NCBI GenBank assembly: GCA_040217195.1 | Contig: JAVJNR010000004.1 | Coordinates: forward strand, 640,001-704,000 | Length of the DNA stretch: 64,000 bases | Source: Leptospiraceae bacterium | GTDB taxonomy: Bacteria; Spirochaetota; Leptospiria; Leptospirales; Leptonemataceae | Direction: 5' to 3' | In this document: piece by piece, positions 43,018-58,211 of the stretch | How positions within the stretch are numbered: position 1 is the stretch's first letter | Layout: every line of letters begins with the position of its first letter | The notes under the pieces: generated by a model | Told to the model about the DNA's origin: nothing | The model's input: the letters and a program-made list of their open reading frames with translations, nothing else | Databases searched by the model: none | Translations under genes and position numbers: made by a program

Positions 43018-44397
43018 TTATCGCTGCGCTTTTACCTCCGCCGGGGTAACCTCATAACCAGGGTTATTCCACTTACTATTGATATAAGTGAGAACATTGG
43101 CTATTTCCGAATCGCTGAGTCCCAGAGCAGGCATAACACCATTGTATTGTTCTCCATTTACTGTTATAGGCTCTCGCAGCCCATGAAGTACAGCTCTAAT
43201 ACTGGCACGCTTATTCTTTAGATAGTCCGAACTGGCCAGAGGTGGAAAGGATCCCTTCACTCCATTGCCGTTCATCTGGTGACAGGCAGCACAGTTATGT
43301 TCGTATACATTTTTGCCTGCCTCAATTCTCTCTGCAACAGTGGCCAGACTCGGAGCCCGGACTTCATCATCCACAGATTGAATCGCACCACCTTCCGGAT
43401 GGTAGATTTCATCGGATACCTTGCCAGAGTAGACGATTGGATCATCCTCTCCTTCCACTTTCAGCATTCCCAGAGCACCCTTGTTAAATGCTCTAAAGAT
43501 TGAGTGGTCCACGAGAATATACGTACCCGGAGCATCCGTGCGAAATTCCACAATCGTGGCTCCACCGGCCGGTATCAGAGTAGTCTGCACATTTTCCTGA
43601 TTGGCCCGGGTTCCGCCTTCCGTATATACCCGGTCAAATATCTCTCCAATGACATGGAAGGAACTCACCAGGTTGGGACCACCATTGCCTACAAACAAAC
43701 GCACTGTCTCCCCTTTGTTTGCAGTGATTGCATTTTTATCGGTGAGAGCGCCCACGGAGCCGTTAAAAACTACGTACTCAGCGTCTTCGCGTACTGCTTT
43801 CTCCATGTCAAAGGGCTGATGTCCTGGCTTTCCGAATCTCTGTTTCGTATAGAATTCAGATTGAAGAACATAGTATTCTCTGTCGACTTCTGGTAGTCCT
43901 CCGGCTGGCTCAACGAGTATAAGCCCATACATTCCGTTGGCAATGTGCATCCCCACCGGTGCGGTTGCGCAGTGATAGATATATAGCCCGGGATTTAATG
44001 CCTTGAACTTGAATGTGGATGTGTGGCCAGGGGCTGTGAAAGAGGAAACGGCTCCCCCTCCAGGTCCGGTCACCGCATGCAGATCTATGTTATGAGGCAT
44101 TTTGCTGTCAGGATGATTACTCAGTTGAAACTCTATTTCATCATCCTCTCGCACGCGAATAAAGGGCCCGGGGACTTTGCCACCAAAGGTCCAGAAGGTA
44201 TACGTCACTCCATCGGCCAGACGCATTTCCACTTCGCTGGTTTCAAGCTTGACGATCACATAAGCCGGTCCCCGATCAATGGGTGCCGGAACATTCGGAG
44301 CAAAGGTTAATTCTGCTTCAATCGTAGGCTTTTCACAGGCCAATAGCCCGGCTACGAAAAGTGGCAGAATGAACCATTTTATTTTTTTGGGATTCAT
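43018..44397 (-). CDS. nirK: Copper-containing nitrite reductase with C-terminal cytochrome c domain
   Basis: [32 protein letters not shown]-terminal CAACH; GGAGG RBS before ATG 44397. Confidence 0.96.
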
Positions 44398-44444
44398 AAT
44401 CGCCTCCAATGATCATAGAGTAAACCAATCCAGCCGTTCAGGCA

Positions 44445-44458
44445 TTGATAACTATCAA
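44445..44458 (-). promoter_or_regulatory. FNR/DNR box, nirK promoter
   Basis: TTGAT-AACT-ATCAA; -10 TACTCT 22 nt downstream. Confidence 0.9.
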
Positions 44459-44474
44459 GCGAAGGTAATGATTC

Positions 44475-44502
44475 AAAAAAATGACCCCTCGAAGGAGGGG
44501 CC
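44475..44502 (-). terminator. Terminator after the alginate-export-family gene
   Basis: GGCCCCTC-CTTC-GAGGGGTC-ATTTTTT on the minus strand. Confidence 0.75.
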
Positions 44503-44623
44503 CATGGGGGAAGGATTCTCGATTAACATGGCTCGAAAGAGGGTCGCAGGGAAATGGAGCTATGCCTGAACTTGATAGGCTTTTACTCATAAGCCTGTGC
44601 CTGCTCTGCCTGGCCGGTGTTTG

Positions 44624-46369
44624 CTAGAATTTTGCAGTAACCATTAGATATGCAAAATCACTCCTGGGGTCGAATGCCGGGTCTCGCAGATCCGGTTGAT
44701 TAAACGTCTCATCCACTCTGTGGCGAATAGAGCTCAGTGCATAAGCCTGACCGTAACCAATGTCCAGCTTAAGTTGATTTACCGATACGGAATAGGTGAT
44801 GTTGTATTCATGGAATAGCTGCGAGCTCAGCTGAGCCACGGAATTCTCGGATATCTTTCTGTTGGCATCCAGAACGGTTGAGTACCTGGAGTTGCTGCTG
44901 GTTTCGGTGCTCATCAGTTCCCCGTCCCCGTCTCGGGCCACTGCCCCGCCATTAGAATAGTAACTGTCCTGAGCCCGGTGTTTCTTGAAATGCCAGTACG
45001 CAATCTTCATATTTCCTGCTTTGCCCAGATCCAGGCCCAGAGTCAGAGCTCGAGCTATAAGATTGCGGGAGCCCACCAGATCCATATCGCCCATGGGACC
45101 ATGATTTGTGGGATAAAGTTGCGTGTAGGTATTGATCCTGGCATCATTTCGGTTCGCATCTCCGCTGGCCAACTCCGCCACCAATCCAATTCGGAAGGTT
45201 TCCAGAGGTTTGAACCCCAGGTCTGCATAGATCGCATACGCTTCATAACTTTGCTTTTCTGTGTACACCGGATCGCCATTTGCATCTACTTGATTCAGCC
45301 AATCCCATCCGGCCTGCACCCTTTCTCCGTTAAAGCCAGTTTGAATAGCCCCTTCCAGGGAATAATCAAACATTGGATGAGCGCTCTTGCCTTTAACAGT
45401 TTTATTGGTGATTCGCAAACCCACTGTGTGCAGATTATCTCTCTGACGATCACGAGCTCTGGGAGGCACTGGGATTCCAGGATAGGGAGATACGCTGGCA
45501 GGGATCCATTTTTTATACACACCTATGTAATATGGCTCCAGCTGAAACTGTGGATGAATGCGAAATTCATTGTAGAATACTGCCAGGTAAGCATCGTCCA
45601 GCTCACGGGCTGTGCTGGCCTGCACAGTACATAGTTTCGTAGTAGGATCGCAGCTAAACGTCAGGCCAGACGGATTAGAGCGACCCACCTGAGTACCGTT
45701 TCCTCCACCATCACTATCTTCTTCAGCAAGCACTGCGCCTGCCATGGAAGTCTTCCAGATTCCCCATTCCATGTGCATTTCCAGAGCATCAAAGCTACGC
45801 CCGACATTGCTCCAGCCTACTTTGCCGATCTGTCGTTCGCTTCCGTAGGCCAGCATCTGACGGCCGAATCGAATTCCCAATGGCCCCAGTAGGTTCTCTG
45901 ACTGGATGTAGGCTTCGCGCATATCCAGGGAATCCTCGGTGAAGTCATTTGCAGTACCAAAACCATTATCTGAACCTGGATTTCCTCCCCATACACGGGA
46001 GTCCTGAATTCGCAACACAATAGATGTATCTTCAGATAAGTTCTTTTCCAGTCCCAGCTGTGCGATACTACCTACGAACTCTCTCGTATCGTCCGTTCTT
46101 CGGTTAAAGTCCGAATTTGCATGAAATTCCGGGCGAATGCGGGCCATTCCAAAAATGGTAAGTCCATCAGTCCAGTTGATTGCCTCCGCTGACAGAGGAA
46201 CGGCGAACAATAAAACAAAGGCTGAAAGCGCCGATCGCCATTTTCCAGGATTCAGGAGCCTGGCTTGCGCCAGCCGCCATTGTTCAGTCTTCCCGGCCTC
46301 CCCGGTCGGTTCCTTCCGGTTCCTGTTTCCGGACCGGACATCACATTGGGAATCATGTTCAGGTTTCAT
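44624..46369 (-). CDS. Alginate-export family outer-membrane beta-barrel
   Basis: QDSRVWG, GRQMLAYGSER.IG..GWSNVGRSFDA, ASGD, terminal Phe. Confidence 0.82.
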   Translation of the reverse strand: MKPEHDSQCDVRSGNRNRKEPTGEAGKTEQWRLAQARLLNPGKWRSALSAFVLLFAVPLSAEAINWTDGLTIFGMARIRPEFHANSDFNRRTDDTREFVGSIAQLGLEKNLSEDTSIVLRIQDSRVWGGNPGSDNGFGTANDFTEDSLDMREAYIQSENLLGPLGIRFGRQMLAYGSERQIGKVGWSNVGRSFDALEMHMEWGIWKTSMAGAVLAEEDSDGGGNGTQVGRSNPSGLTFSCDPTTKLCTVQASTARELDDAYLAVFYNEFRIHPQFQLEPYYIGVYKKWIPASVSPYPGIPVPPRARDRQRDNLHTVGLRITNKTVKGKSAHPMFDYSLEGAIQTGFNGERVQAGWDWLNQVDANGDPVYTEKQSYEAYAIYADLGFKPLETFRIGLVAELASGDANRNDARINTYTQLYPTNHGPMGDMDLVGSRNLIARALTLGLDLGKAGNMKIAYWHFKKHRAQDSYYSNGGAVARDGDGELMSTETSSNSRYSTVLDANRKISENSVAQLSSQLFHEYNITYSVSVNQLKLDIGYGQAYALSSIRHRVDETFNQPDLRDPAFDPRSDFAYLMVTAKF

Positions 46370-46405
46370 AATGCCTTAGAATATTACGGCCGGAGCCGCT
46401 TTTCC

Positions 46406-46419
46406 TTGACATTTATCAA
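46406..46419 (-). promoter_or_regulatory. FNR/DNR box
   Basis: TTGAC-ATTT-ATCAA; -10 TATTCT 22 nt downstream on the minus strand. Confidence 0.8.
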
Positions 46420-46578
46420 ATGATGATGTGAATACCTGGAGCAAGGTAGGCTGATGCGTATCCGACATGGAAAAAACCGCGGCCGATTCTGCGGTCCAGG
46501 ATTGTATTCTTGAACGGATCGTTAGTTCTTGCTCAGCAATGGGCCCATCGGAACGCCTATTCGAATTACTCTTCGCAC

Positions 46579-46592
46579 TTGATACAGATCAA
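46579..46592 (+). promoter_or_regulatory. FNR/DNR box
   Basis: TTGAT-ACAG-ATCAA; -10 TAATAT at 46615-46620. Confidence 0.85.
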
Positions 46593-46626
46593 TTACCGAT
46601 CCTTTTGGGCCGGCTAATATTTATCC

Positions 46627-47091
46627 ATGGTTTTGCGAAGCGAAGATGGTCGGGAGGATGCTTCAACGGATAGAAACCGAAACAGGCGAGTTGCCCTTGC
46701 CAGATATCAGAAGTTACCGTTAATGTATTCTTGCTCTGGATGCTCCAGTGCGGCTCAACTGGCCAATGATTTAGCTCTTCGCGCCGACCGCGAAGAGCTG
46801 GCAGAAATGTCCTGTATTGCAGGCGTTGGTGCCGGAATTAAACCCCTGGTCCATACTGCACGTTCCGGTCGACCTATAATTGCTCTAGATGGCTGTCCGC
46901 TTCACTGTGCCCGAATGGCATTGAAAAATCTAGCGATTATAGCTGATGTACATATAGACCTCTCACGTCATGGAGTGAAGAAGCGATACCATGAATCGGC
47001 CACACCGGATGAATACAAACATTCATGGGAGGCTGTTGTGCAACCGGCGGTCAGCGAACTCATGTTATTGCATCTGGGGTCTGAACAATAG
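46627..47091 (+). CDS. Putative zinc-binding protein (DGC domain)
   Basis: YSCSGCS, MSCIAG, IALDGCPLHC. Confidence 0.8.
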   Translation: MVLRSEDGREDASTDRNRNRRVALARYQKLPLMYSCSGCSSAAQLANDLALRADREELAEMSCIAGVGAGIKPLVHTARSGRPIIALDGCPLHCARMALKNLAIIADVHIDLSRHGVKKRYHESATPDEYKHSWEAVVQPAVSELMLLHLGSEQ

Positions 47092-47307
47092 AATTTCAGC
47101 AATCCACTATAGCTCTAGCTTCAGAGCAATCCTGCGTTTCATACTACAGATTACAAATACCCGAAACTAGAATAGGGACTTTTTCCGGGCCGGATAACAC
47201 AGGAATCAAAAAGTCCGACTCCAGACTGGCCTTTTGCGAGTATTTCCTTTTAGCTTTCTGGATTCTGTATCCGTTTTCTATCGCAAGGAAAATTCGCTTC
47301 AGGAGCT

Positions 47308-47862
47308 CTAAGGATTCAGCTCTGCCAGGATTTCTTTCCAGTTATGTGGATTCCAGTTTCCGGTGCCTTTTATTCTAGCCCTGATCTGACGATCTACGAT
47401 AATATAACTTACAGGAATGGCATTCACCGCATAGGAGCTCCGGAGCTCCTGGGAACGATTGCGAACCACCAGCAAATTTTGGATCACCTCTCTCTGGAGA
47501 AATTGCGAAACGGCCCCATCGTGATTGTCTATAGAAATCGCAATTACTAGAAGTTCCCTTCTGCTGAATTGGCCTTGCAGTTTACTTAGCTCTTTCATCT
47601 CAGCTCTACAGGGAATGCAATACGTAGCCCAGAAATGGACGATGATCAACCTGCTTCTGATCGATAGTAGTTCAACCTTAGATCCATTTAGACTTTCTAA
47701 CCTAAAGTTCGGAGCAGACCGCACATCAACTGGCACATCAAATCCTGCCTCTGTCCAGAAGCTTGAATCTATGGTCTGGGCCCGAAGTTCCGAGCATAGC
47801 AGAAGAACCAGAACCGGGCCAATTGCCTTGAGAAACACTGCTTTTGATCCAATCCCCATCAT
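47308..47862 (-). CDS. TlpA-family disulfide reductase
   Basis: HFWATYCIPCRAEM, AIP. Confidence 0.85.
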   Translation of the reverse strand: MMGIGSKAVFLKAIGPVLVLLLCSELRAQTIDSSFWTEAGFDVPVDVRSAPNFRLESLNGSKVELLSIRSRLIIVHFWATYCIPCRAEMKELSKLQGQFSRRELLVIAISIDNHDGAVSQFLQREVIQNLLVVRNRSQELRSSYAVNAIPVSYIIVDRQIRARIKGTGNWNPHNWKEILAELNP

Positions 47863-47911
47863 AAACCTGACTCCCTGGAGACAATCCTACTTTCTCAGCG
47901 TTCTTTCTGCC

Positions 47912-47925
47912 TTGATTCAGGTCAA
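47912..47925 (-). promoter_or_regulatory. FNR/DNR box, tlpA-like promoter
   Basis: TTGAT-TCAG-GTCAA; -10 TAGGAT 22 nt downstream on the minus strand. Confidence 0.75.
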
Positions 47926-48008
47926 AAAGCGACGGGCTTAGCCTTTTTCTACCGGCATCACCAGATAGAATAAATGCAACCGAAGGCTGGGTTTGCGTTC
48001 CAACGTAT

Positions 48009-48665
48009 ATGCGAGTTACAGATCTATTTGGAGTTCTTCCCACAAGAAGCCAGGAAGCCTGGAATGCATTAACCCATGGTATGGGATTATTCATCAGTAT
48101 TCCTGCCGGTATTGTTTTGCTTTTCAAAGCTTCTCGATCGGACGATGGACTGACCATAATGGCAGCATTGATCTTTTCTGCAGCTCTTTTGCTACTCTAT
48201 GCCTCTTCCACTCTCTATCATACCAGCCAGAGAATTCGACTAAAGTTCGTTCTGCGAAAGATAGATCATTCAGCTATCTACATTTTCATTGCCGCAAGTT
48301 ACACACCATTCAGCCTGATACTTCTTCGAGATCATCCATACCTGGGATGGCCACTTTGCGTATTGATCTGGACTGCCGCTGCGGCCGGTATTCTTTATAA
48401 ATCATTCTTTATCCATAAGTTCGATACCGTTGCCACGCTATTGTATCTTGCCATGGGCTGGGTGGCCATTTTTGGAGTGACAGAAATCATTCAGAGGCTG
48501 GAGCCAGCAGGGCTTCTTTTACTCGTTGCAGGCGGACTCAGTTATACCCTGGGAGTGGGCTTTTACTTCTGGAGTTCCTTACGAGCTCACCATGCAATAT
48601 GGCATCTGTTTGTCCTTGCAGGTTCTCTATTTCATTACTGGACCATACATAGCTACGTACTATGA
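48009..48665 (+). CDS. Hemolysin III / PAQR family membrane protein
   Basis: NALTHG, SSTLYH, DHSAIY, HAIWHLFV. Confidence 0.92.
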   Translation: MRVTDLFGVLPTRSQEAWNALTHGMGLFISIPAGIVLLFKASRSDDGLTIMAALIFSAALLLLYASSTLYHTSQRIRLKFVLRKIDHSAIYIFIAASYTPFSLILLRDHPYLGWPLCVLIWTAAAAGILYKSFFIHKFDTVATLLYLAMGWVAIFGVTEIIQRLEPAGLLLLVAGGLSYTLGVGFYFWSSLRAHHAIWHLFVLAGSLFHYWTIHSYVL

Positions 48666-48688
48666 TCATGGGCCTCCGGTTTCGCATC

Positions 48689-49060
48689 TCAGATTTCGGA
48701 CTCAAGATAGTCCCGAATCAGTCTTAGTTGAGCCCCGGACAGAGGTTGCCTACCCCGGCCACGACGGTAGTGCTCCATTCTGCGAATTGTATTTGTCCAG
48801 CCTCCCGGAACCTTCTGGGCCGGGTTGGGCAAGGCATGACATTCGCTACAAACTTCGCCAAACAGAACTCTTCCTCTGGATAGCTGGTCCCCTGGAGCTA
48901 CCGACTCTGGCGCCAAGCCAAAAACACCTGACAGACAAGAAAAAGAAGGGATAACCCAGAACATGGAAATTGCCAGTAAAGACCGGGCAAACGGCCGCAA
49001 TACCGGAGCCAGCCCGAGTCTGCTGTTCACCATCTGCCCGGTAATTCGTGGCTCCGGCAT
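48689..49060 (-). CDS. Small c-type cytochrome (probable lipoprotein)
   Basis: CSECH...W..TIRRM; GAGG before ATG 49060; start uncertain. Confidence 0.7.
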   Translation of the reverse strand: MPEPRITGQMVNSRLGLAPVLRPFARSLLAISMFWVIPSFSCLSGVFGLAPESVAPGDQLSRGRVLFGEVCSECHALPNPAQKVPGGWTNTIRRMEHYRRGRGRQPLSGAQLRLIRDYLESEI

Positions 49061-49118
49061 TGCCTCTACCTGGCACGATTTTATGAGGCCTGGACTGTCG
49101 CTGTCCGTCTGGCCCAGG

Positions 49119-49199
49119 ACTTTCGCTACTTTCGCTACTTTCGCTACTTTCGCTACTTTCGCTACTTTCGCTACTTTCGCTACTTTCGCTAATTTCGCC
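49119..49199. repeat. 9-bp tandem repeat (VNTR)
   Basis: (ACTTTCGCT)x8 plus one degenerate copy. Confidence 0.97.
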
Positions 49200-49313
49200 T
49201 GTTCATTGCCTTTTTGCATTCAGGGCTCCACTGCCGCCGACCCAAAAATAGAAATCCACTTTCCCATACGAAAGCAGGCCCGGAATTAATCATCCGCGCC
49301 TGCCAACGGGTTT

Positions 49314-50588
49314 CTAGAACCCGAGAGAATCGGGCTGCCCGGAACTCTCGGAATGCCTTACGCTACTGGAAGTGGGAATTTCCAAATAGTAAGCCAGCTG
49401 CACTGTGTACTCCCGGGGCATTTGAATGCCTCGAAACCTCTGTTCCACCGGCACGGCCACCGATAGTTCCAGAACCTGCAATGGAACTGGCTGCCATTGA
49501 ATTCCAGCCGTAATGGAATGAATCTCCCCGCCGTAATTATCCGGGTCCCAGGCAGGACTCATGTATTCAGAGAAGATATTTCCATCCGTTGCTCGGCCCG
49601 CATCTCCGCGGTAAGCCTCTTCATGCTCGCCCTGCAAAGCCCCCTGCCATTGAGAGTTCCATTGAATGTGGGCCACTAGACTGGGCAGCAACTGATACAT
49701 GGCATAAACATCCAATCGGTAAAAGTCACCCAGAGAGTAGTTATGCTTATTTCTGTACGCTCGACCTGTGTATAGAAGAGTGGCCCCCCACCAGTAAGGA
49801 GATGCCGATCCCTGGTAGGCAAGGCCTGCCACCGGATCAAAAGTTCCTGACCCAAGCTGCATGGAATACGGCATAGGCTCGCTGCGACGATCCGGAAATG
49901 AGCTATTAAAGTCGGTCAGGTTTAGAGGAGCCGTGGGATTTCCCAGAGGATGGTTCCTGTTCTTTTCATCGATGGAGCCTGTGGGTAGACTCAGTCCTGC
50001 GATGATGGATAATTGATTGGTGGGAGCCAGAGAGTCATCTTCCAGGACTCTATATTTTCCCATTAGCATTGTATCGCTCATCCCGGATGTTTTCATTGTA
50101 TAATGCGAACGACCTAGCATATTTCGCATCATATAGTTAAACTTCATCTTCATGTACTTTTCCTGATACATGGTCATCAGCATAGCTGCGAAGCGGTCCG
50201 AGAAACTGTAAGCCGCAGAGATGTCGTACATATTCATGTACATCCTTTGCGGAGCTGCCATATATTTTCTTCCGGTAAGCTCTCCTGTAATTCGATTGTT
50301 AATGGCCATGATATTCGCATCCATGGACAGGCTCATACTTCCAGGAACGGAAAGCACAGCTTCCGTGGACAAAGATCCGGAACCTTGAAGTCCTCGCATG
50401 CTCATATGCATTGGCTTTATTTTCAGTCTAAATTCATGGGTTTCCGGTATTCCAGCGCCCAGGATGTTCAGTGGCATGTTACCTCCGCAATGGAGACAGC
50501 AAAGACCCGTGTCGGCCTGAGCCGGCGGTACATATAGTAGAGTTAGCAGGCAGAAGACCATAGCTCCGCCAGTAAGATAATGTTTCAT
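49314..50588 (-). CDS. Met-rich putative outer-membrane transporter (COG4313/MetA-pathway-like)
   Basis: Signal peptide, CCLHC, many Met, GLSLPTG, MQLGSGTFD, beta-strand pattern. Confidence 0.7.
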   Translation of the reverse strand: MKHYLTGGAMVFCLLTLLYVPPAQADTGLCCLHCGGNMPLNILGAGIPETHEFRLKIKPMHMSMRGLQGSGSLSTEAVLSVPGSMSLSMDANIMAINNRITGELTGRKYMAAPQRMYMNMYDISAAYSFSDRFAAMLMTMYQEKYMKMKFNYMMRNMLGRSHYTMKTSGMSDTMLMGKYRVLEDDSLAPTNQLSIIAGLSLPTGSIDEKNRNHPLGNPTAPLNLTDFNSSFPDRRSEPMPYSMQLGSGTFDPVAGLAYQGSASPYWWGATLLYTGRAYRNKHNYSLGDFYRLDVYAMYQLLPSLVAHIQWNSQWQGALQGEHEEAYRGDAGRATDGNIFSEYMSPAWDPDNYGGEIHSITAGIQWQPVPLQVLELSVAVPVEQRFRGIQMPREYTVQLAYYLEIPTSSSVRHSESSGQPDSLGF

Positions 50589-50653
50589 TTTTTCCTCCCT
50601 GATTGGAACGGATTGAGGTCCCGAAACATTGGAGGCATCGGGACCTCCGGCGA

Positions 50654-51103
50654 TTATGCAAATCGCCAGGAAGGAGGATCTCGAGCTCTGGAAACTATGC
50701 TGTCTGTTGCGATCGAAATTGGAGGCGATGCAAAAGCCAGACCGCCTTTCTGAGATTGAATTTGAAGTGCGTAGAAATCTGCTTTGTTCAGATCCTGAAT
50801 GGATAGATAGCCCTGGCAGACGGGACAGACACCGTGATCATGGACCGGTTCTTCATTCGCATCTTTATCCAGGTTAGTCGACGTAGTACCCGGTTTCGCC
50901 GGCTGGACCTGGTGAGCTTCTGATCCGGTCCGGTGACAATCTCCTGGTCGATCCAGGGAACTTTGTGTATTACGGGCAACAGATCCTATTTCCGGACAAT
51001 GATGGAGGGCTGGCACCGCATTGGCCACCAGGAAGCTGGCAAGGACTAACTGCGAAGTAAACAGTCGTGCTGCGGCCTCTCCTGATCTTTTCCAGCGTTT
51101 CAT
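50654..51103 (-). CDS. DUF2946/CruR-like exported leader protein
   Basis: Signal-like N-terminus, HH, HDHGVCPVCQ, C-terminal SRARDPP. Confidence 0.7.
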   Translation of the reverse strand: MKRWKRSGEAAARLFTSQLVLASFLVANAVPALHHCPEIGSVARNTQSSLDRPGDCHRTGSEAHQVQPAKPGTTSTNLDKDANEEPVHDHGVCPVCQGYLSIQDLNKADFYALQIQSQKGGLAFASPPISIATDSIVSRARDPPSWRFA

Positions 51104-51198
51104 ATCGGATTTGCGAATCCGGGATACCGGTGCCTGTTAAAAGGTCTATTCGGCTACCATCATCTGTTAACAGGATATCAGAAATGAAACATTGGGCC

Positions 51199-51212
51199 TT
51201 GATAGTTATCAA
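51199..51212 (-). promoter_or_regulatory. FNR/DNR box
   Basis: TTGAT-AGTT-ATCAA; -10 TATCCT 21 nt downstream on the minus strand. Confidence 0.85.
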
Positions 51213-51341
51213 CCGGGCTTAATTAAATCATTGGCGACATCCTTCATGAGAGTTAACAATCATACTCTCAGAGAAGGTGAATTCTATTTCGCAGCCAATT
51301 GAAACGCCGGAGCTTTCTGTCCCATTACAATAATCGGCAGC

Positions 51342-51641
51342 CTACAACTGTAGAGTTTTACGACCCTCGGGCGAAATCCGCTGCGGAGTCCAGGGAGGAT
51401 CGAATACAAGAGATAGTATGACCTCATGGTCTGGCCATTCTGCTTGAACCGTTGCTTCCACTTCCTCCAGAATGAGCGGTCCCACAGGACAACCCGGCGA
51501 AGTCAGAGTCATCTCAATTTCAATATCCCTGTCATCTATTTTGATCTGATTTAGAAGACCCAGATCTACAATGTTCAGCCCCACTTCAGGATCCAGAACC
51601 TGCCGTAGCTTTTCTTCTATTGAACTCTCTTCGACATTCAT
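51342..51641 (-). CDS. DUF59/SufT/PaaD-like metal-sulfur cluster assembly factor
   Basis: DPEVGLNIVDLGL, TLTSPGCP, FDPPW; ATGA overlap. Confidence 0.9.
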   Translation of the reverse strand: MNVEESSIEEKLRQVLDPEVGLNIVDLGLLNQIKIDDRDIEIEMTLTSPGCPVGPLILEEVEATVQAEWPDHEVILSLVFDPPWTPQRISPEGRKTLQL

Positions 51642-52894
51642 ACAGATCTCCTTCGCAAAACGAATAGTACCAGATGGATAAAATATGTGAAATAAAAACC
51701 AACTGTTAGAAGCAGTGCCAATACACCGGCAATCATTGCATCGCTCCAGAAAATACCCAGAACCAGGACAAGAACGGACAGTGGATAAATCCACAGGATC
51801 ACCGATGCAATCCAGGAAATACCTATATTCTGAGGCAATGGAACCTGCTTACCTCTCGCTCCGGATTGCAAAGCCATCCAGCTCATAAAAGGAAGAATCT
51901 TAAATCCCATACCCAGAGTTGCACTTCCAATGAATCCCAGAAGCATGACCATCACGGAGGCAAATGCAAAGCGATAGGGCTGTATCGTTGCAGTTAATGA
52001 GCCGGAATCGAATATACCGACTGCAAGAAATAGGGCCGCAATCAGAGGGAAGGCAAAGGATCCCAGAAAAAGAATCATTGGAGCCTCAAGTCTTCTTCGC
52101 ATTCTCTTGCGAACGCACTGAAACAGATAAACCAGGAAGCCACCATAACCAGCCAGGATCAGAGCGAATCCCAAAGCTGCGTTTGCAGCCCGGCCAGAGA
52201 TTGCACCTGGAAGTAGTAACAGAGGCGAAACCATCAAAAGAACCCCTGAGTATCTGGCCCATCGTTCGTTCATTCCATGACTCAAAATAAACATAGGCAC
52301 CAGACGAGTTCCCAGAGCCAGAATCATTAGAGAAAACCATCCCAGGATTCCGGTCCAGGCATGCCACTGGACGAAACGGAGCGCAGGCACATGGAAGTAG
52401 TAGCCGGAGGCCATGAGCATACCGGAAAGTGCCATTAGAAGTAGCCACACAGAGCCGATGAGCACCTGAATAGCAGAACTATTCCAGTGACCTTTTCCTG
52501 TGGTCCAGATTAGTTGAGCGATAAGACCCAGTATGGCCAGAAAAAGCAACCCTGCGAACCCGGGCATTAGTCCGGGCTCTATAAGTCGACTCAGTACAAA
52601 GCCAGTAGCTCCAATCCACCATAAAATCGATGTGATCCATGCAAGTAAACGGCTACCCAGCTTGCCTTCTACGACCACCGGAAGTAGCTGGTAGAGCACA
52701 CCCAGAATACAGGGACTGATGGTCAATAGAGTAAAGGTATGTAGAACGACTATGATTCCTGGCTGGTAGTAATGACCCTTAAAGTCATCCACAAAATATA
52801 CAATGCCCGATGAAGTGGCAATCCAGCCAATGAGACCCACGGCAAAGTTGCTTAAGAGCAAATCGTAATGATTCTCTTTTGCTTCCGGAATCAT
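51638..52894 (-). CDS. About 12-TM membrane protein, heme-copper oxidase subunit I/NnrS-like fold
   Basis: HTFTL...LYQLLPV, HAWTGILGW...LVPMF, GFKILPF; ATGA overlap. Confidence 0.7.
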   Translation of the reverse strand: MIPEAKENHYDLLLSNFAVGLIGWIATSSGIVYFVDDFKGHYYQPGIIVVLHTFTLLTISPCILGVLYQLLPVVVEGKLGSRLLAWITSILWWIGATGFVLSRLIEPGLMPGFAGLLFLAILGLIAQLIWTTGKGHWNSSAIQVLIGSVWLLLMALSGMLMASGYYFHVPALRFVQWHAWTGILGWFSLMILALGTRLVPMFILSHGMNERWARYSGVLLMVSPLLLLPGAISGRAANAALGFALILAGYGGFLVYLFQCVRKRMRRRLEAPMILFLGSFAFPLIAALFLAVGIFDSGSLTATIQPYRFAFASVMVMLLGFIGSATLGMGFKILPFMSWMALQSGARGKQVPLPQNIGISWIASVILWIYPLSVLVLVLGIFWSDAMIAGVLALLLTVGFYFTYFIHLVLFVLRRRSV

Positions 52895-53745
52895 GGCCGC
52901 CTGCCAATAAGAAGTCGAACATCTCCTGGTCCCTTGTGCGATATGCAATACTGATAGCCCTGTTCTGCCAGATGAGGAAATAGAAATCGGGGCTCTCTTT
53001 CATGATAGACGTACAGACACTGACTGCTTCGCATCTCCTGCAATTTAGAAAGGATCTTCATCATGGGCTCCGGAGGTGCAAGACCTACGACATTGATTCT
53101 TAGCACAACAGAACGAGCGGACTCAGAACGCCCCCTCACCAGAGCTGATGGCCGGGACTGGCTTTGATTGATGCCATCTTCTGAGATCGCTCTATTGGTT
53201 TTCTTCCCTCGGATAAATCGAGCTTCGAATCCATCCTCTGTTTCAACTATGGTTCCTTCCAGCCCCTTCTTTCTCAGCAAAGGCACCAATGGTTCCGGGG
53301 CAAAAGAATTCAATACGCAGAGTCCATCCCCCGGCTCCATTTGTGCTACCAGTTCCAGAATCTTTGACAGTGGCTCCTGGCCCTTTTCCATAAAGGGACG
53401 TGCATCCAGGTAGTGAATCCGCTCCGGCTCAATGCCTGCATATTGTTCCAGGAATGCCTCATTGTCTTGCTGTCCGGCGAAATCTGATTCCTGAATCTTC
53501 CGGGGCGATCTGCGAACGGAAAGCCCAACACTCTCCAGGGAGTCCAGAATGTCATCTGTACTAACGCCGCCAATTCTAGCTGCCATTGCTATGGTTACCT
53601 GCCCGGCCATGACCTTTCGAAGTACCGGGTTCCGTAATTTCTTGAATCGACCACTTACAGAAATTAAAGCATCAATCGCTCCAGGATGTGCGATAACGCT
53701 TGCAATCCTGGAATTTTCATCAACTGTGTCTCTAAGATCTTTCAT
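52891..53745 (-). CDS. DUF1858 plus tandem DUF2249 domain protein
   Basis: FKKLRNPVLR...VTIAMAARIGG; LDAR...EPL...NSFAPEPL; GLAPPEPM...HEREPRFL. Confidence 0.75.
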   Translation of the reverse strand: MKDLRDTVDENSRIASVIAHPGAIDALISVSGRFKKLRNPVLRKVMAGQVTIAMAARIGGVSTDDILDSLESVGLSVRRSPRKIQESDFAGQQDNEAFLEQYAGIEPERIHYLDARPFMEKGQEPLSKILELVAQMEPGDGLCVLNSFAPEPLVPLLRKKGLEGTIVETEDGFEARFIRGKKTNRAISEDGINQSQSRPSALVRGRSESARSVVLRINVVGLAPPEPMMKILSKLQEMRSSQCLYVYHEREPRFLFPHLAEQGYQYCISHKGPGDVRLLIGRRP

Positions 53746-53804
53746 TCGATACCTCTGTATAGAATTGCCCGGACGGATTCAGACCTTGCCATTGCAGAAG
53801 CGAT

Positions 53805-54074
53805 TCAGCTACAGCAGCCTCCTCCAAAGCCCAGTTGTCCGTCCCCCAGGCGAGTGATCTTCACCTGAAAAAACTGAGGACCTTCTTCCAGATACTCCCA
53901 TCCAAAAGCGTTGGGCAATTCAGCCTGCATTTGGTAATAAAGTGGTTTTGGATCGTGATCATTGTAGATTACAAACCATTCCCCGTTTTTCAGTTCATTG
54001 AACCGGCTGAAAATGGTTGGATGCTTTTCCCGAGGCTCCAGAACTGTAACGTCCAGAATATTTTGTTCGCTCAT
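53805..54074 (-). CDS. DUF2249 domain protein with C-terminal GGGCCS
   Basis: LDVT.LEPREKHPTIF, NDHDPKPLYYQ, WEYLEEGP. Confidence 0.88.
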   Translation of the reverse strand: MSEQNILDVTVLEPREKHPTIFSRFNELKNGEWFVIYNDHDPKPLYYQMQAELPNAFGWEYLEEGPQFFQVKITRLGDGQLGFGGGCCS

Positions 54075-54206
54075 TTTTATCTCCTTGATTGAATTGAATT
54101 ATAGTTTGACATTCATTGCTGGCAGTGGTCCAGAGTTCCGAACCCTTACTCCACCAGATATGCAGTTTCCAGAGTTTAGATTAGGCAGGATTCGCACGGT
54201 TCTGCC

Positions 54207-54220
54207 TTGATCCAGATCAA
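54207..54220. promoter_or_regulatory. Bidirectional FNR/DNR box
   Basis: TTGAT-CCAG-ATCAA; -10 TAAGCT on + (22 nt) and TAATCT on - (23 nt). Confidence 0.88.
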
Positions 54221-54283
54221 TGCGAATACAAAGTAGAAGGACTAAGCTCAGACTCTTCCCGTGAAGCTCTGGAGTAGAGAATA

Positions 54284-54796
54284 ATGAAAGATGCAGAGCC
54301 GTCGAACTCAGGAAAGCCGCCCACCGGCCAATCCCTTCAAGAACTTGTGGAGAAACTCTGCGAAGAGCATACTCGATTCTTAAAGCAAACTCTGCCAGAA
54401 CTACAAGAGCTTGCTTTCGAGATTCAGAATCCACCGTTGGTCCGATTTCTGGAAAACCTGTCCGATGAATTGCACGTTCATTTTCGAATGGAAGAGAGGC
54501 TGGTCTTCCCATTGATTCTTTCGCGTCTGGATCATCCAGGTCAGGCCATTGAACCGGCCCTGAGGCTGGCCTGTGATCATATGCGTGAAGACCATCGGAC
54601 CCATATGAAACATCTGCAGGTACTCCAGGCATTTCGCCAGCAGTTGGACGAGTCCCGGTACGATGCGCATAGAAGTGCTCTGAATGATACCCTGGAAAAG
54701 TTTTGCCTGGAGATTGAAAATCACTGCGACCTGGAGAATAAGTGGCTTTTTCATTACTGGCCCATGCTGGAAGATGAAAGTACAACTCTTCAGTGA
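54284..54796 (+). CDS. Hemerythrin-like protein (Ric/YtfE C-terminal-like)
   Basis: EH, HFRMEE.LVFP, HMREDH, HCDLEN..LF. Confidence 0.8.
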   Translation: MKDAEPSNSGKPPTGQSLQELVEKLCEEHTRFLKQTLPELQELAFEIQNPPLVRFLENLSDELHVHFRMEERLVFPLILSRLDHPGQAIEPALRLACDHMREDHRTHMKHLQVLQAFRQQLDESRYDAHRSALNDTLEKFCLEIENHCDLENKWLFHYWPMLEDESTTLQ

Positions 54797-54872
54797 ACCT
54801 GGAAAATCTACAGCAGGGTCGCAGCGATTGAGGCATTACCTGAGACATTGCCTTTTTGCTTGACGGCCCCAT

Positions 54873-54895
54873 AAGATGCATATTAAATACATGTT
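54873..54895 (+). promoter_or_regulatory. NsrR box overlapping a sigma70-like promoter
   Basis: AAGATGCATATTAAATACATGTT, an 11-1-11 dyad fitting gATGyAT-N5-ATryATc; TTGACG at 54860. Confidence 0.85.
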
Positions 54896-55066
54896 ATGAG
54901 GCCCGGCCAATCAATTTTTATAGATGATGCCAGGTTTATGGCAGGGCCCGGTAATTCTCCTGAGATGACTCTTCAGGCCTCAGCCCGGAAGATGCGGACC
55001 ACATTCGTTTCCGAGCTGTTGAGGTGTATGACCTGTCATGGAGGCCAGGAGCTCAGGAGGGCTGCA

Positions 55067-55510
55067 ATGCAACTAACTACATTTACCGATTATTCATTGA
55101 GAATACTGATTCATGCATCCTTGAAGAGTCCGGATTTATCTACCGTGGCCGAGGTGTCCCGGCAATTTTCCATTTCTAAGAATCATGTGATGCGGATAGT
55201 TCAATTTCTGGGCCAACATGGTTTTCTTCGTAACATAAGGGGAAAGTCTGGAGGGTTTACACTCGGGAAAAGGGCGGAAGAAATATCCCTGGGTGAGGTG
55301 GTAAGATGCACCGAACAGAACCTGACCATAGTTCCCTGCTTTGCAGACGAGGTTCAGGGCGAACGATGCACCATTGAACCATCCTGCCGACTGGCTGGAA
55401 TCCTGAAGGAAGCCTTATCTGCTTTCCTGACGGTTATGGATGGCTATACGGTTCAGGATTTATTGACCGAAAGCCGGGGATTGAGGCAGTTACTGGGGCT
55501 TAAAGGTTAA
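55067..55510 (+). CDS. nsrR: NO-sensing Rrf2 family regulator
   Basis: MQLTTFTDYSLR, SKNHV, RGKSGG, three Cys (PCF...CTIEPSCRL); AGGAGG RBS. Confidence 0.88.
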   Translation: MQLTTFTDYSLRILIHASLKSPDLSTVAEVSRQFSISKNHVMRIVQFLGQHGFLRNIRGKSGGFTLGKRAEEISLGEVVRCTEQNLTIVPCFADEVQGERCTIEPSCRLAGILKEALSAFLTVMDGYTVQDLLTESRGLRQLLGLKG

Positions 55511-55585
55511 ACAGGCAACCCGCTTCTGACTGGATCCGAATGACAGACAAGGACGTAGAAAATTGATAAAATCGAGGAACGAGAT

Positions 55586-56056
55586 ATGAAACCAGGACAA
55601 AGCAAAACAATTGAAAGCGCAATGTCAGTATTCGCATACGTTGCAATGAGCATCGCTCTGATATTGGCACCGGCCTGTGGTGATGGCCATGACTCCCATC
55701 AAAAAAATGAAATACATTCCCATGCAGATGATCAAAAGCATGATGAGTCTCCGGTACAATTGAACAATGGGAAGAGATGGCAGGCTGATTCGGCTACCAA
55801 TGAATCAATCAGGAAAATGCAACAGTTGGCTTCGCAAAGGCCAGGTAATCCGTCCGTTGCTGGCCAAGAGTTACAAAAACAATTCAAGGTCCTATTGAAA
55901 GAATGCACAATGCAGGGACCCGCCCATGAGCAACTGCATGCCTATCTGCGTCCTTTACAGAGTAAAATAAAATCGCTGGAAAACTGCACCGACTGCCAGT
56001 CCAAAATGGAGGATCTCAATTCCTATCTCCATACCTATTCGGACTACTTTCAATAG
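55586..56056 (+). CDS. His-rich helical lipoprotein (DnrO-like)
   Basis: APAC lipobox, His-rich linker, LNNGKRWQAD, CTMQGPAHEQLH. Confidence 0.65.
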   Translation: MKPGQSKTIESAMSVFAYVAMSIALILAPACGDGHDSHQKNEIHSHADDQKHDESPVQLNNGKRWQADSATNESIRKMQQLASQRPGNPSVAGQELQKQFKVLLKECTMQGPAHEQLHAYLRPLQSKIKSLENCTDCQSKMEDLNSYLHTYSDYFQ

Positions 56057-56226
56057 GAATGGAAACCGGAAGCGAATCCAGATTCAAGGTAGACTTTTAA
56101 AGCCTGTCATTTACTGAGCAACCCGGAACTGATCATGATGTTCTGGTTCAAAACCAATCTGAACCAGAACGTGGGAGCTTTCCTTTTCTCGAGCCAGGGA
56201 GAAATCGGCTCTTTACGTAAATCCAT

Positions 56227-56254
56227 AAAAAACCGGCCGGGTATGAGCCCGGCC
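56227..56254 (-). terminator. Rho-independent terminator
   Basis: GGCCGGG-CTCATA-CCCGGCC-GGTTTTTT. Confidence 0.8.
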
Positions 56255-56367
56255 AAATCCCCTATTCTCAAGTTTCTTTGCAGGTAGCGACTGCCTGTTT
56301 CCTGGCAGAAGGACGATTCGAAATAACCGGTTTCGCCCTTTCTGTTAGTCTCAGGCATTGCTGATGT
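56227..56367 (-). ncRNA. Candidate FNR/DNR-activated sRNA (~140 nt)
   Basis: FNR box, extended -10 and intrinsic terminator, with no credible ORF between them. Confidence 0.55.
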
Positions 56368-56401
56368 GGACTTTCTATACCACAGAACAGCCTCCCACTC
56401 C

Positions 56402-56415
56402 TTGACATTTATCAA
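56402..56415 (-). promoter_or_regulatory. FNR/DNR box overlapping a stop codon
   Basis: TTGAC-ATTT-ATCAA (identical to 46406); TGG-TATAGA with the -10 22 nt downstream. Confidence 0.75.
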
Positions 56416-56657
56416 CCCATGGAAAAAAACCATAGTGCTCCGCCGGCAAAAAAGGAAAATAGAATCAGAAGCCAGATTCCATAAATTGGATGCGCGCGTC
56501 TCACTTCCATGAATTCCAGAGCAACTAGAGCAAACTTCGCAGCACTTAAAGCCAGAATCAAGATTAGAGAACCGGTGCGATATTCTGCGAATAGATACAT
56601 CCCCAGGATTAGAAGCAGAAGTACAAATAGAACGATGGTATTCAATTTTCGTATCAT
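56412..56657 (-). CDS. Cytochrome c oxidase subunit IV-like (NorF-like) small membrane protein
   Basis: KFALVALEFMEVR motif; TAATG overlap with norE. Confidence 0.75.
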   Translation of the reverse strand: MIRKLNTIVLFVLLLLILGMYLFAEYRTGSLILILALSAAKFALVALEFMEVRRAHPIYGIWLLILFSFFAGGALWFFSMG

Positions 56658-57247
56658 TACATTCCTCCACGAGCCAGTATGTAAATTGAAGGAAAGACCA
56701 GTATCCAGATCAAATCGCACATGTGCCAGAATACACCGATGGTTTCCACATCTTCATGATCGGCGGCTGAGTATCGCATCTTGCGGATTCCCAGGGCCGC
56801 CACAATCAGAAGAAAGGTGCCCACCACTACATGCAGAAAATGAAAGCCCGTAATTAGCCAGTACATGGTAAAGAATGTATCGTAATTCAGACCATAGCCG
56901 CTATCAAGCTTCTGATAGTATTCGAATCCTTTCAGGGCTAGAAAACCTGCCCCTGTGAGCACCCCCAGCCAGATAAGCAGCGAAGAGCGATTCTTCTGGT
57001 CCAGCCTTAGATTTCGAATTCCTTCGGCAACACACCAGCCTCCCACAATGAGAAGACCTGTATTCACAGTGCCCAGAGTTAGATTCAATGTTTGGGCTGA
57101 TTCCATAAAGGAATTTGCATCGCCGTATCTATAGGCGAAAAATACAATCAGTGCCGGAATAAAAGTCAGCATTTCGATTGATAGGATCATCCAAATCAGG
57201 ATCCCTCCTGGTGGATAATAAATTCTTTCACTTTGTTCGTGTTCCAT
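56657..57247 (-). CDS. norE: Cytochrome c oxidase subunit III family protein NorE
   Basis: YPPGGILIW, TGFHFLHV, FWHMCDLIW; nor context. Confidence 0.88.
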   Translation of the reverse strand: MEHEQSERIYYPPGGILIWMILSIEMLTFIPALIVFFAYRYGDANSFMESAQTLNLTLGTVNTGLLIVGGWCVAEGIRNLRLDQKNRSSLLIWLGVLTGAGFLALKGFEYYQKLDSGYGLNYDTFFTMYWLITGFHFLHVVVGTFLLIVAALGIRKMRYSAADHEDVETIGVFWHMCDLIWILVFPSIYILARGGM

Positions 57248-57373
57248 AGCATACTCACATCAGATCCGCCAGCTCCCTGGTTAGGCATAAGGGCTAATTG
57301 TTTCAGGTAACCAATGCCTGAACTGGAGGATTCTTCATTCACTATAATATAGGGAAAATATTATGGCCGGGCA

Positions 57374-57387
57374 TTGCTACAGATCAA
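57374..57387 (-). promoter_or_regulatory. FNR/DNR box, norE promoter
   Basis: TTGCT-ACAG-ATCAA; -10 TATATT 22 nt downstream on the minus strand. Confidence 0.75.
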
Positions 57388-57507
57388 GGAAGTTCCATTT
57401 TCAGAACGAAACGTTCCTGACCCATTTGTAAGTTCATCCGCTCTTTCATTCTAAGGTCTGGCAGGTAGCCGAATCAATGGTGTCGATACAGGAATGAATT
57501 ATTGAAG

Positions 57508-57580
57508 GGATCTATCATCAGAAAGTATCTATCATTAAGAGGGATCTATCATCAGGAAGGATCTATCATTAGGAAGGATC
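57508..57580. repeat. 17-bp tandem repeat, 4 copies plus a partial
   Basis: GGATCTATCATCAGAAA, GTATCTATCATTAAGAG, GGATCTATCATCAGGAA, GGATCTATCATTAGGAA, GGATC. Confidence 0.9.
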
Positions 57581-57587
57581 AAGGAGC

Positions 57588-58211
57588 TTACTGTTCATCC
57601 AGCAGACGAACGTAGCCATCATTTTCAGTGATCCTACCTTGCTTTTTAAGGGCCGTGAAAGCCCGACTGAAAGCTTCAGCAGATACTCCAAGATACAGAG
57701 CCACCTGGTTTTTGGGAATATTAAGATAGACTTCCTTTTCTGCAGCTCCCAGAGCCTCCAGAAAAAAAACCACCCGCTCCTCTGTTGTATGCAGCATTAG
57801 CAAAGTAGTTTTATTTTTAAAGAACTCTGCATTGGAGACAAAGTCTTCCTGAAAGCATTGCTTTAAATCAGGATGCTTTTGCATCAGGGAAAGGCATTCA
57901 TCTACCGGGATATAGATGACTGCACCGTCGCGAACCGCCTCGCACGATGCAGGATAAACAGGCATGGTCTTCAGCATGGGAAGAGCGGCAATAATGGAAC
58001 CAGGGAAAAAAAAGTTAAGGATGGCTTCCTTTCCAGCTTCATTCAATTGATAGATCTTAAAAATTCCCTTATCTATTACGTAAGGCCCCCGAAACCCATC
58101 TCCCTGCAAAAATACGGTTTCTCCGGCTTCCAGGGTAATTCTCCTGGAAACACTCCGCAGTTTATCGCGACAGGGTTCGGGCACTCTATTCCAGAATTCG
58201 CTCTCCGGCAC
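57588..58211 (-). CDS. Crp/Fnr family regulator (Dnr/NnrR-like)
   Basis: cNMP-type beta-barrel, YPAS, HTH EAFSR (E-x-x-S-R); no FNR N-terminal Cys cluster. Confidence 0.88.
   Translation of the reverse strand: MPESEFWNRVPEPCRDKLRSVSRRITLEAGETVFLQGDGFRGPYVIDKGIFKIYQLNEAGKEAILNFFFPGSIIAALPMLKTMPVYPASCEAVRDGAVIYIPVDECLSLMQKHPDLKQCFQEDFVSNAEFFKNKTTLLMLHTTEERVVFFLEALGAAEKEVYLNIPKNQVALYLGVSAEAFSRAFTALKKQGRITENDGYVRLLDEQ

Follow-up and report, generated by a model that had tools for sequence, protein, structure and literature searches.

Whether a short exported peptide decides the translation of an outer-membrane protein, and whether copper turns that translation off or on, is the question raised by a locus in the genome of a Leptospiraceae bacterium (Spirochaetota; GenBank assembly GCA_040217195.1, contig JAVJNR010000004.1, positions 640,001 to 704,000; source genome 94% complete). 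The window, meaning the whole 64 kb stretch of DNA that was analysed, carries a leader open reading frame (ORF) with a CxxC motif and a C-terminal RDPP, followed by genes for a Met-rich outer-membrane barrel and a cytochrome c. An initial annotation had proposed an arrest-peptide switch here, and all the sequence features that it listed were found in place (Table 1). The reading favoured in this work, for which we would claim slightly better than an even chance, is that arrest switches translation on and copper switches it off, in a module for copper uptake across the envelope. Copper-off uptake is preferred because of the CruR-type motifs of the leader, the MbnPH/OprC-type contexts of its paralogues, the Met ladder of the barrel and its expected co-induction with nirK.

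Two layers of control would act in such a mechanism. In the first, a DNR/NnrR-type protein of the Crp/Fnr family would activate the promoter during denitrification, as the box, its spacing and the set of regulators suggest. In the second, a ribosome translating the exported leader would arrest with Pro143 in the P site, as expected from the literature on RxPP motifs. Judging from the folding geometry, the stalled ribosome would cover both the anti-Shine–Dalgarno (anti-SD) segment and hairpin 1, leaving only a weak local hairpin to hold the ribosome-binding site (RBS) of the barrel gene, which could then be translated. At a distance of 47 residues from the P site, the invariant Cys/His cluster would have just emerged from the ribosome or the translocon, and copper bound there would release the arrest as in CruR; upon termination the long helix would re-form and barrel translation would fall. 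The 12-stranded, N-terminally plugged barrel would pass Cu(I) without TonB by way of its Met ladder and CCxxC plug, and the cytochrome c and a TlpA-type thioredoxin may set the redox state of copper and of its Cys ligands for NirK, SCO and the CuA oxidase.

The leader family and its arrest motif

When the barrel protein was used as query against 61 related genomes, matches were obtained in 19, and an upstream ORF (uORF) with both CxxC and R[DG]PP was found in 8 genomes; it was not seen at the loci of the second family. In the eight aligned leaders, H34, C36, C56, H57, H88, H90, C93, C96, R141, P143 and P144 are invariant, and RxPP, whose conservation in homologous loci was at issue, is thus kept in every aligned relative. 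The distance from the second Cys of CxxC to the first Pro is 47–50 in 23 of 23 leaders, whose total lengths run from 112 to 226 aa, and 44 residues intervene between CxxC and RxPP in the window leader and 44–47 across the 23, a set that leaves out two Nitrospirota leaders with CxC. It has been reported that 45 residues separate the two motifs in CruR, with ±2 tolerated (PMC9426467; here and below, published work is cited from the portions of each source that were available). The N-terminus of the leader is basic, with a hydrophobic window score of at least 2.0, and the leader is the first gene behind the conserved promoter box.

The window leader has no Pfam match at E ≤ 10 and no NCBIfam match, and PF11162 (DUF2946, gathering cut-off 23.7 bits) matches no protein of the genome. 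Two of the eight aligned leaders, however, exceed this cut-off, namely L023, an orthologue from the same genus (23.9 bits), and L009 (26.4 bits), and four more match below it, while among 15 leader paralogues one passes and eight match below the cut-off; the leader profile itself matches 19 of the 61 genomes, paralogues included. Downstream of the paralogous leaders, 10 proteins, including one from this genome whose gene is followed by MbnH, pass the cut-off of MbnP TIGR04052; a truncated TonB receptor has the OprC family as its best match, below cut-off. It has also been reported that CruR homologues precede uptake-type contexts, including the MbnP and TonB-receptor types (PMC9426467). Because orthologues pass the cut-off, the CxxC/RxPP spacing is conserved and the paralogues stand in these contexts, the assignment of the window leader to the DUF2946 (CruR/CutF-type) uORFs, as a divergent member, is supported by orthology rather than by its own score, and the earlier claim of a CruR-type leader holds in this form.

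A second leader of the same family, with CxxC and RPPP, is present in the same genome (C5:175953-176426, equivalent to L130:9954-10427, minus strand); it heads, 265 nt downstream, genes for MbnP, MbnH, a lipoprotein and another barrel-like protein, and it is kept in the genus and the family. In G019 and G011 (L008 and L009), the same leader family precedes a distant His/Met-rich barrel without CCxxC.

The arrest motif is RDPP in three species of the genus and RGPP in two more distant ones, and the 23 family members comprise 3 RDPP, 10 RGPP, 5 RAPP and 5 RPPP. It has been reported for ApdA/ApdP mutants that the change from Ala to Asp is partially permissive and RGPP the strongest, and that RDPP is under-represented across bacterial proteomes (PMC12992588). 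Neither RDPP nor RGPP occurs among the long ORFs of this genome (2,872, non-overlapping and each ≥200 aa), where ~6–8 of each would be expected (~6 for RDPP). The proposal that RDPP acts as a variant arrest motif is plausible in view of the published mutants and the proteome avoidance; arrest there is likely, though probably weaker than at RAPP or RGPP.

Predicted pairing of the stall codons with the ribosome-binding site

The pairing was followed across the barrel loci of GTDB genomes (the best 80 of 180 confirmed). A Cys/His ORF whose N-terminus is hydrophobic and whose final 15 residues include Pro-Pro ends 59–168 nt before the barrel in 30 of the 35 loci without the label Gammaproteobacteria or Pseudomonadota, and in none of the 45 loci that carry it (38 of them with at least 700 nt upstream); in this count L024 and a corrected L047 frame were added by hand, and L070 (frameshift) and L096 (contig edge) were left out. 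Sixteen of the 30 C-termini are PPP, 6 R[ADG]PP, 3 RPP and 5 PP. The leaders form several BLAST clusters plus singletons, the families of Leptospirales, Zetaproteobacteria, Desulfobacterota and Nitrospinota/Nitrospirota not clustering together, and outside Leptospirales only L066 touched DUF2946, just under the cut-off. At L070:5424-5833 the leader is apparently split by the frameshift, its signal part and Pro-Pro tail lying in different frames.

For 31 leaders (these 30 and that of the window), the cost of opening positions −18 to +6 at the barrel start was calculated for the free RNA and with the ribosome footprint masked to P-site+15. Masking lowers this cost by more than 1 kcal/mol in 29 of the 31, and in 30 of the 31 the RBS is better hidden in the native sequence than on average in 40 synonymous recodings, with p ≤ 0.05 in 16 and p = 0.03 in the window. 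Because proline codons naturally resemble the anti-SD, as has also been remarked in PMC12697547, a partner-swap test was run, in which the stall-codon/RBS duplexes average −16.4 kcal/mol for cognate and −12.4 kcal/mol for swapped partners, a difference that none of 20,000 permutations equals, whether overall or within lineage; cognate pairing wins in all five lineage groups, including −14.9 vs −11.6 within the genus. Related leaders are not independent, so that these permutation p values are overstated, and the effect recurs in unlike leaders. In addition, CCT opens 29 of 51 terminal Pro-Pro steps compared with 35 of 154 in neighbouring genes (Fisher p 1e-5), across lineages, an enrichment that was not applied to the window because of the 44% background in its genome. 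On the masking, recoding and swap tests, the anti-SD on the stall codons, put forward earlier for this one locus, is a selected feature across the five lineage groups. An uninterrupted 14-bp stall-codon/RBS helix is seen at L060 and L072, with a predicted release of 10–15 kcal/mol.

In the window, the minimum free energy (MFE) fold of the 151-nt segment 50720-50570 places both hairpins inside the anti-SD/SD helix (−48.5 kcal/mol; z −3.52, 0 of 200 shuffles), with pair probabilities of ~0.6 for the outer helix in that register and 0.8–1.0 for the hairpins, so that the three-helix structure of the initial annotation is recovered as the MFE. The anti-SD helix and hairpin 1 both exist, but the 9 bp and 7 bp ascribed to them do not stand together, since both claim G50667; they form 8+7 or 9+6 bp (−40.0 vs −39.5 kcal/mol). 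A mutually exclusive extension of hairpin 1 into GGAGG, which was said to replace hairpin 2, was rejected on energy, being ~9 kcal/mol worse, with pair probabilities below 0.01 past the first two pairs. Hairpin 2 was also discarded as an intrinsic terminator, as it lacks a U tail and is unlisted by the terminator scan. The local hairpin over the SD (Table 1) was absent from the earlier description.

Several results weigh against the favoured reading in this window. The gain predicted from stalling is −0.2 kcal/mol, compared with ~4 kcal/mol if folding ends at 50570 and −0.1 to 3.4 kcal/mol with more coding sequence folded, and the window and L021 are the two leaders of the 31 with little or no gain; this low value is ascribed to the local hairpin, which can re-hide the SD. 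The swap residual of the window is only −0.7 (rank 4 of 31). Column-wise covariation is weak in the six-sequence genus alignment (64% paired vs 59% shuffled), with no two-sided change in the outer helix, which we attribute to shifts of the helix register; the genus-level test is underpowered because a metagenome scan added little, its seven loci being a near-duplicate of L022, two L021 copies, two Nitrospinota-like loci with a PP leader and two fragments. Of the anti-SD/SD covariation that had been predicted, the preference for cognate over swapped partners is thus borne out and the column-wise signal in the genus is weak. Moreover, the partially permissive class of the published ApdA/ApdP mutants (PMC12992588) is the one to which RDPP belongs. 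CCT is already the first codon of 44% of the Pro-Pro steps in this genome, and Pro-Pro codons are intrinsically complementary to the SD; the same fact could speak for a leader that is a real gene without regulation of the barrel here, its pairing a by-product of the Pro-Pro codons, a view made very improbable by the conserved spacing and motif, the avoidance of RDPP elsewhere in the proteome and the swap test.

The small predicted release and the re-hidden RBS do not sustain the clean off/on switch first imagined for this window. RDPP and the residual hairpin together suggest a damped switch in this species; the leader family is predicted from the models to have the switch, and the window copy a damped version of it. 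In two metatranscriptome contig sets a single 49-nt match was obtained, on a 9-bp tandem repeat only, which gives no evidence either way.

Little predicted release in the window and at L021 would also fit the CruR mechanism proper, in which the main effect of the arrest is to prevent Rho-dependent termination, with the anti-SD helix playing a secondary part or being in decay in the genus. A rho gene is present, the 3' half of the leader is mildly C-rich (60 C, 48 G), and the paralogous and more distant leaders have spacers of 150–450 nt. The spacer between leader and barrel in the window, however, is 65 nt long (19 C vs 17 G), almost fully paired and far shorter than the 162 nt of CruR, and cognate pairing beats swapped pairing within the genus; we regard a primarily Rho-based control as rather improbable.

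The barrel, its partners and the copper context

The barrel has 664 homologues at E ≤ 0.001, and in 119 aligned sequences C30, C31, C34 and 11 Met are invariant, with 17 Met kept at ≥90%. It scores 29.5 bits against PF13557 (cut-off 22), and its model (mean predicted local distance difference test score, pLDDT, 87.5) has 4rl8 and FapF as top structural matches, the former with Z 24.3 and a root-mean-square deviation of 2.6 Å over 254 residues. The description as a non-TonB outer-membrane protein is therefore upheld by the 12-stranded fold. The conserved Met occupy alternate positions on neighbouring strands (62/64, 116/118/120, 138/140/146/148), where they share the phase of polar residues and not that of aromatic ones, a pattern which suggests that the Met ladder faces the lumen. 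Residues 26–50 are non-strand (block pLDDT 55–87), the alignment to FapF beginning at residue 26. It has been reported that the N-terminus of 4rl8 fills the lumen (PMC4493636), and if the same holds here, CCxxC would sit at the Met ladder. OprC carries Cu(I) along a methionine track (PMC8610252).

The barrel profile has no sequence match at E ≤ 10 among solved structures. The protein also has no NCBIfam match, the TonB copper receptor TIGR01778 included, a class with 22 strands plus plug and ~640 aa or more, compared with 424 aa and 12 strands here; ESM Atlas matches are only automatically named PF13557 'transporter' clusters, and no OprC-family receptor passes the cut-off in this 94% complete genome. 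In the literature listings read, no publication was found that ties COG4313/PF13557 to copper or describes the barrel–cytochrome–TlpA module, though File S1 of PMC9973294 and Fig. 4 of PMC12992588 may list the neighbour class. PF13557, Phenol_MetA, Leptonema, Leptospira, Mariprofundus and Nitrospina are absent from the supplement files of PMC9426467 (three, with accessions and taxa only) and PMC9973294 (three small ones), as are SphA, MetA, MbnP, Leptonema and PF13557 from the supplements of PMC12992588, one file aside. In other Leptospirales (L011, L012, L014-L017), a distant barrel homologue is fused, by eye, to an N-terminal PCuAC-like domain, and at L017 this fusion sits behind an SCO-like gene.

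Of the 67 loci in which 1.2 kb or more of downstream sequence is available, motif searches place both a CxxCH cytochrome and a TlpA-type thioredoxin on the same strand in 62. The TlpA gene of the window, missed earlier, lies beyond an inserted opposite-strand gene of the HlyIII family (48009-48665, plus strand), which stands head-on between the cytochrome c and TlpA genes; the insertion is also present at L021 and L022, not at L023 and L024, and where the insertion occurs TlpA carries its own Crp/Fnr box. The 176-aa frame of the cytochrome opens inside a tandem repeat (49119-49198, nine-base unit, 8.9 copies) that lies between the barrel and cytochrome genes and has no counterpart in the orthologue translations seen; the spacing to AGAGG and the lengths of the orthologues make 49060 the likelier start. 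The repeat and a weak terminator-like hairpin (49277-49256) may loosen co-expression of the cytochrome. Complex prediction for barrel and cytochrome c gave a score of 0.00 and no verdict. It has been reported that the TlpA of Bradyrhizobium reduces ScoI and CoxB (PMC6669012).

SCO-like genes occur in 5 of the 80 loci and a PCuAC cluster in 5. When 151 neighbour proteins (55 + 96, chosen from 837 ORFs) were scanned with Pfam, a single example each of a heavy-metal P1B ATPase, CopD and PepSY_TM also turned up, besides TonB genes; most of the others were unrelated housekeeping genes. The genome itself has genes for a subunit I/II oxidase pair on C4, and three P1B ATPases in it pass the Cu cut-off. 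The initial annotation assigned the copper route to NirK. In five genomes of the genus nirK lies 4–7 kb from the barrel, but a general link was rejected, since NirK passes the cut-off in 21 and the CCxxC barrel in 7 of the 61 genomes, a NirK-like match accompanies 4 of the 80 barrel loci, and G004 (same genus, 92% complete) has NirK and lacks the CCxxC barrel. NirK is plausible as a local copper client rather than as the purpose of the family; an induction of the barrel together with nirK would fit supply rather than detoxification.

A leader whose signal is not copper but another soft metal (Zn, Ni, Ag), the disulfide status of the periplasm or the secretion load, with a module for thiol-redox or another substrate, must also be considered. 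Eight invariant Cys/His ligands exceed the needs of a Cu(I) site, uORFs with RAPP/RGPP are also found ahead of thioredoxin and DsbA genes (PMC12992588), a link to hydrophobic molecules exists for the known COG4313 channels (PMC4493636), and RegB/RegA-like redox regulators flank the module in Gammaproteobacteria. A histidine-kinase/response-regulator cluster with RegB/RegA as best match is found in 24 loci, 23 of them gammaproteobacterial. In 15 gammaproteobacterial loci (L029, L031, L036-L039, L041, L054, L056, L062, L071, L075, L081, L086, L093) such genes are divergent from a leaderless barrel operon; the two representatives scanned are both under NCBIfam cut-offs. In contrast, the 17-Met ladder and Cys plug form a Cu(I)/Ag(I)-type ligand set, and the MbnP, SCO, PCuAC and NirK contexts all indicate copper, so that a non-copper signal seems a poor prospect.

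We tentatively propose, at clearly less than even confidence, that this protein is a prototype for copper channels of a widespread, TonB-independent type, in which a 12-stranded COG4313 pore combines a Met ladder with a three-Cys plug and has a cytochrome c and a TlpA of its own. At least four separately recruited leader families would precede it, keeping ~46–58 residues from the last Cys to the prolines and a covarying anti-SD of proline codons, with the RegB/RegA-like pair taking their place in Gammaproteobacteria.

As for the promoter, the FNR-type box noted earlier is a conserved Crp/Fnr box with class II spacing in the genus alignment: box and a TG-n-TAnnnT element 21–22 nt downstream align in all six sequences. 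The aligned element would place the box centre near −41, and a box near −41 is a class II position. The sigma-70 scan, which requires a −35 hexamer, did not report the −10 element. The box is kept within this genus only, and none with ≤1 mismatch is found within 300 nt upstream of leader or barrel in loci L025-L100. When up to one mismatch is allowed, the window holds 12 sites, where 4.5 would be expected (0 of 100 shuffles), and it has five of the 14 exact boxes of the genome. At L007 (G018), the 342-nt spacer between leader and barrel holds a one-mismatch Crp/Fnr box at 1159-1172.

The sensing of O2 that had been suggested together with NO finds no counterpart among the three Crp-family helix-turn-helix proteins of this 94% complete genome, none of which has an N-terminal Cys cluster by eye, and the best Fnr-family score is 54 against a cut-off of 228. 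Only one of the three (58211-57588) has an E-x-x-S-R recognition helix, which we take to mark the reader of an FNR-type box. Because this regulator lacks the Cys cluster, the reader is probably a nitric oxide (NO)-type DNR/NnrR regulator rather than an O2 sensor.

Table 1. Position of the leader–barrel module and associated features in the window
Feature	Position	Strand	Remarks
Crp/Fnr-family (FNR/DNR-type) box, exact consensus TTGAT-N4-ATCAA	51199..51212		Same position in 6/6 aligned sequences, 5 species of the genus
Probable extended −10 element, TG-n-TATCCT	51172..51180	-	Suggested by aligned T-G-x-T-A-x-x-x-T columns
Leader uORF, 149 aa, divergent DUF2946 (CruR/CutF-type)	50654..51103	-	Basic N-terminus; hydrophobic export segment, residues 14–33; HxC 34–36; CH 56–57; HxH..CxxC 88–96; RDPP 141–144
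HDHGVCPVC, putative metal site (leader residues 88–96)	50816..50842	-	H88, H90, C93, C96 invariant 8/8
RDPP arrest-type motif (within RARDPP; R141–P144)	50672..50683	-	P-site Pro143 would be 50677-50675 by analogy with CruR
Anti-SD over Pro-Pro-Ser-Trp codons	50667..50675	-	8–9 bp with barrel RBS
Hairpin 1, 6–7 bp, contains leader stop codon	50649..50667	-	Found in the 4 RDPP sequences compared
Hairpin 2, 10 bp, in spacer, juxtaposing anti-SD and SD	50615..50647	-	No U tail
Barrel RBS (50601-50593) and competing local hairpin (50612-50593)	50593..50612	-	Hairpin −6.2 kcal/mol
Outer-membrane barrel, 424 aa, COG4313/PF13557 fold	49314..50588	-	N-terminal CCxxCGGNM
Exported monohaem cytochrome c (CxxCH and invariant Met)	48689..49060	-	Frame open from 49219 through 9-bp repeat
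TlpA/ResA-like thioredoxin, third module gene	47308..47862	-	Own one-mismatch box, 47912-47925
Crp/Fnr-family regulator without N-terminal Cys cluster (DNR/NnrR-like)	57588..58211	-	Candidate box reader
nirK (Cu nitrite reductase fused to cytochrome c)	43018..44409	-	Exact box 44445-44458; FGE-like and SCO genes follow; candidate co-regulated copper client

The module belongs to a compact denitrification island (41452-62853), which also holds nirK-FGE-SCO, an alginate-export-type barrel, a DGC-domain gene, DUF2249/DUF1858 genes, FeS-assembly genes, hemerythrin, Rrf2 and norCB-QD-E-like genes; five exact and five one-mismatch Crp/Fnr boxes lie at 44445-62853.

Known systems and the direction of the copper response

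The nearest known leader is CruR (Bp2923 of Bordetella pertussis, PF11162; PMC9426467, PMC12992588), which shares with the window leader CxxC and an RxPP motif 45 residues downstream (44 here), an outer-membrane channel as the next gene and paralogues before MbnPH and TonB receptors, and probably also the position as first operon gene and the export signal. Unlike CruR, which ends in RAPP and acts through Rho termination in a long spacer on a TonB-dependent receptor, the window leader has RDPP and four invariant Cys and four His, a short structured spacer with the anti-SD on the stall codons and a 12-stranded COG4313 barrel as target. The host also differs, Spirochaetota being a phylum name not found in three supplement files of PMC9426467.

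CutF, which precedes cutO in Rhodobacter capsulatus (PMC9973294, bioRxiv 10.1101/2025.02.05.636593), is similarly an exported Cys leader with a proline-rich arrest ~45 residues from its site and an SD-hiding stem opened by stalling. A stem of this type, which occludes the SD of the next gene and can be reached by the stalled ribosome, is present in the fold of the window, with a release predicted to be partial. However, CutF has CxxxC and PPP and depends on elongation factor P, the oxidase under its control serves detoxification, and its stem has been placed between the genes, whereas the anti-SD of the window sits on the arrest codons. CruR and CutF respond to copper in opposite directions, and CutF, which is copper-induced, is the one with the SD-shielding stem (PMC9426467, PMC9973294).

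To the points already counted against copper-off control must be added that CutF is the sole DUF2946 leader shown to work via an SD stem, that more than half of the barrel leaders (16 of 30) end in a CutF-like PPP, those of Zetaproteobacteria among them, and that a heavy-metal P1B ATPase gene lies directly downstream of the module at L056. With a CopD gene before the module at L080 and an RDPP arrest so weak that it could need reinforcement, these points would suit a CutF-like polarity, in which copper prolongs the arrest and the module is made when copper is present, for handling excess or for making copper enzymes only with metal available. We judge this polarity unlikely, though the most serious competitor: the window leader has CxxC and RxPP at the CruR spacing, its paralogues lead MbnP-MbnH and an OprC-like receptor, and clear copper-resistance genes are rare among the neighbour proteins scanned. 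The favoured direction thus stays stall-on and copper-off.

RxPP arrest chemistry and the logic by which a stall opens an SD are shared with SecM/MifM/VemP and ApdA/ApdP (PMC10987492, PMC12992588), which monitor secretion, control sec/yidC genes and have no metal site. The barrel resembles the COG4313 channels Pput2725 (PDB 4rl8, PMC4493636) and FapF (PDB 5o65) in its 12 strands and PF13557 domain, and differs from them in its 11% identity, invariant CCxxC N-terminus, Met ladder and fixed cytochrome c and TlpA partners. With OprC/NosA (PMC8610252) it shares a methionine track to a Cys/Met site, and the anaerobic induction and copper repression of that system are the regulation expected here; the fold of OprC/NosA is unrelated, 22-stranded and TonB-dependent, and the analogy is functional only. 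The leader class, both polarities and the stall-opens-SD logic are already known, and the switch principle is not new. The new elements are the target module, the repeated appearance before it of unlike leaders whose anti-SD stall codons covary, the natural RDPP allele and the genus-specific denitrification promoter.

Outer-membrane uptake of ionic copper in Gram-negative bacteria is known mainly from the TonB-dependent OprC, and a Met-lined barrel that is found in vent, sediment, nitrifying or iron-oxidising bacteria, with copper-type leaders in five lineage groups, is a candidate second route. RDPP beside RGPP is a natural allele, placing in a native setting a 'partially permissive' motif known from mutagenesis. 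The leaders also bear on why copper releases arrest in CruR yet causes it in CutF; if the barrel is indeed such a prototype, CruR-type (RxPP) and CutF-type (PPP) leaders before one target would constitute a natural experiment on the direction of the copper response.

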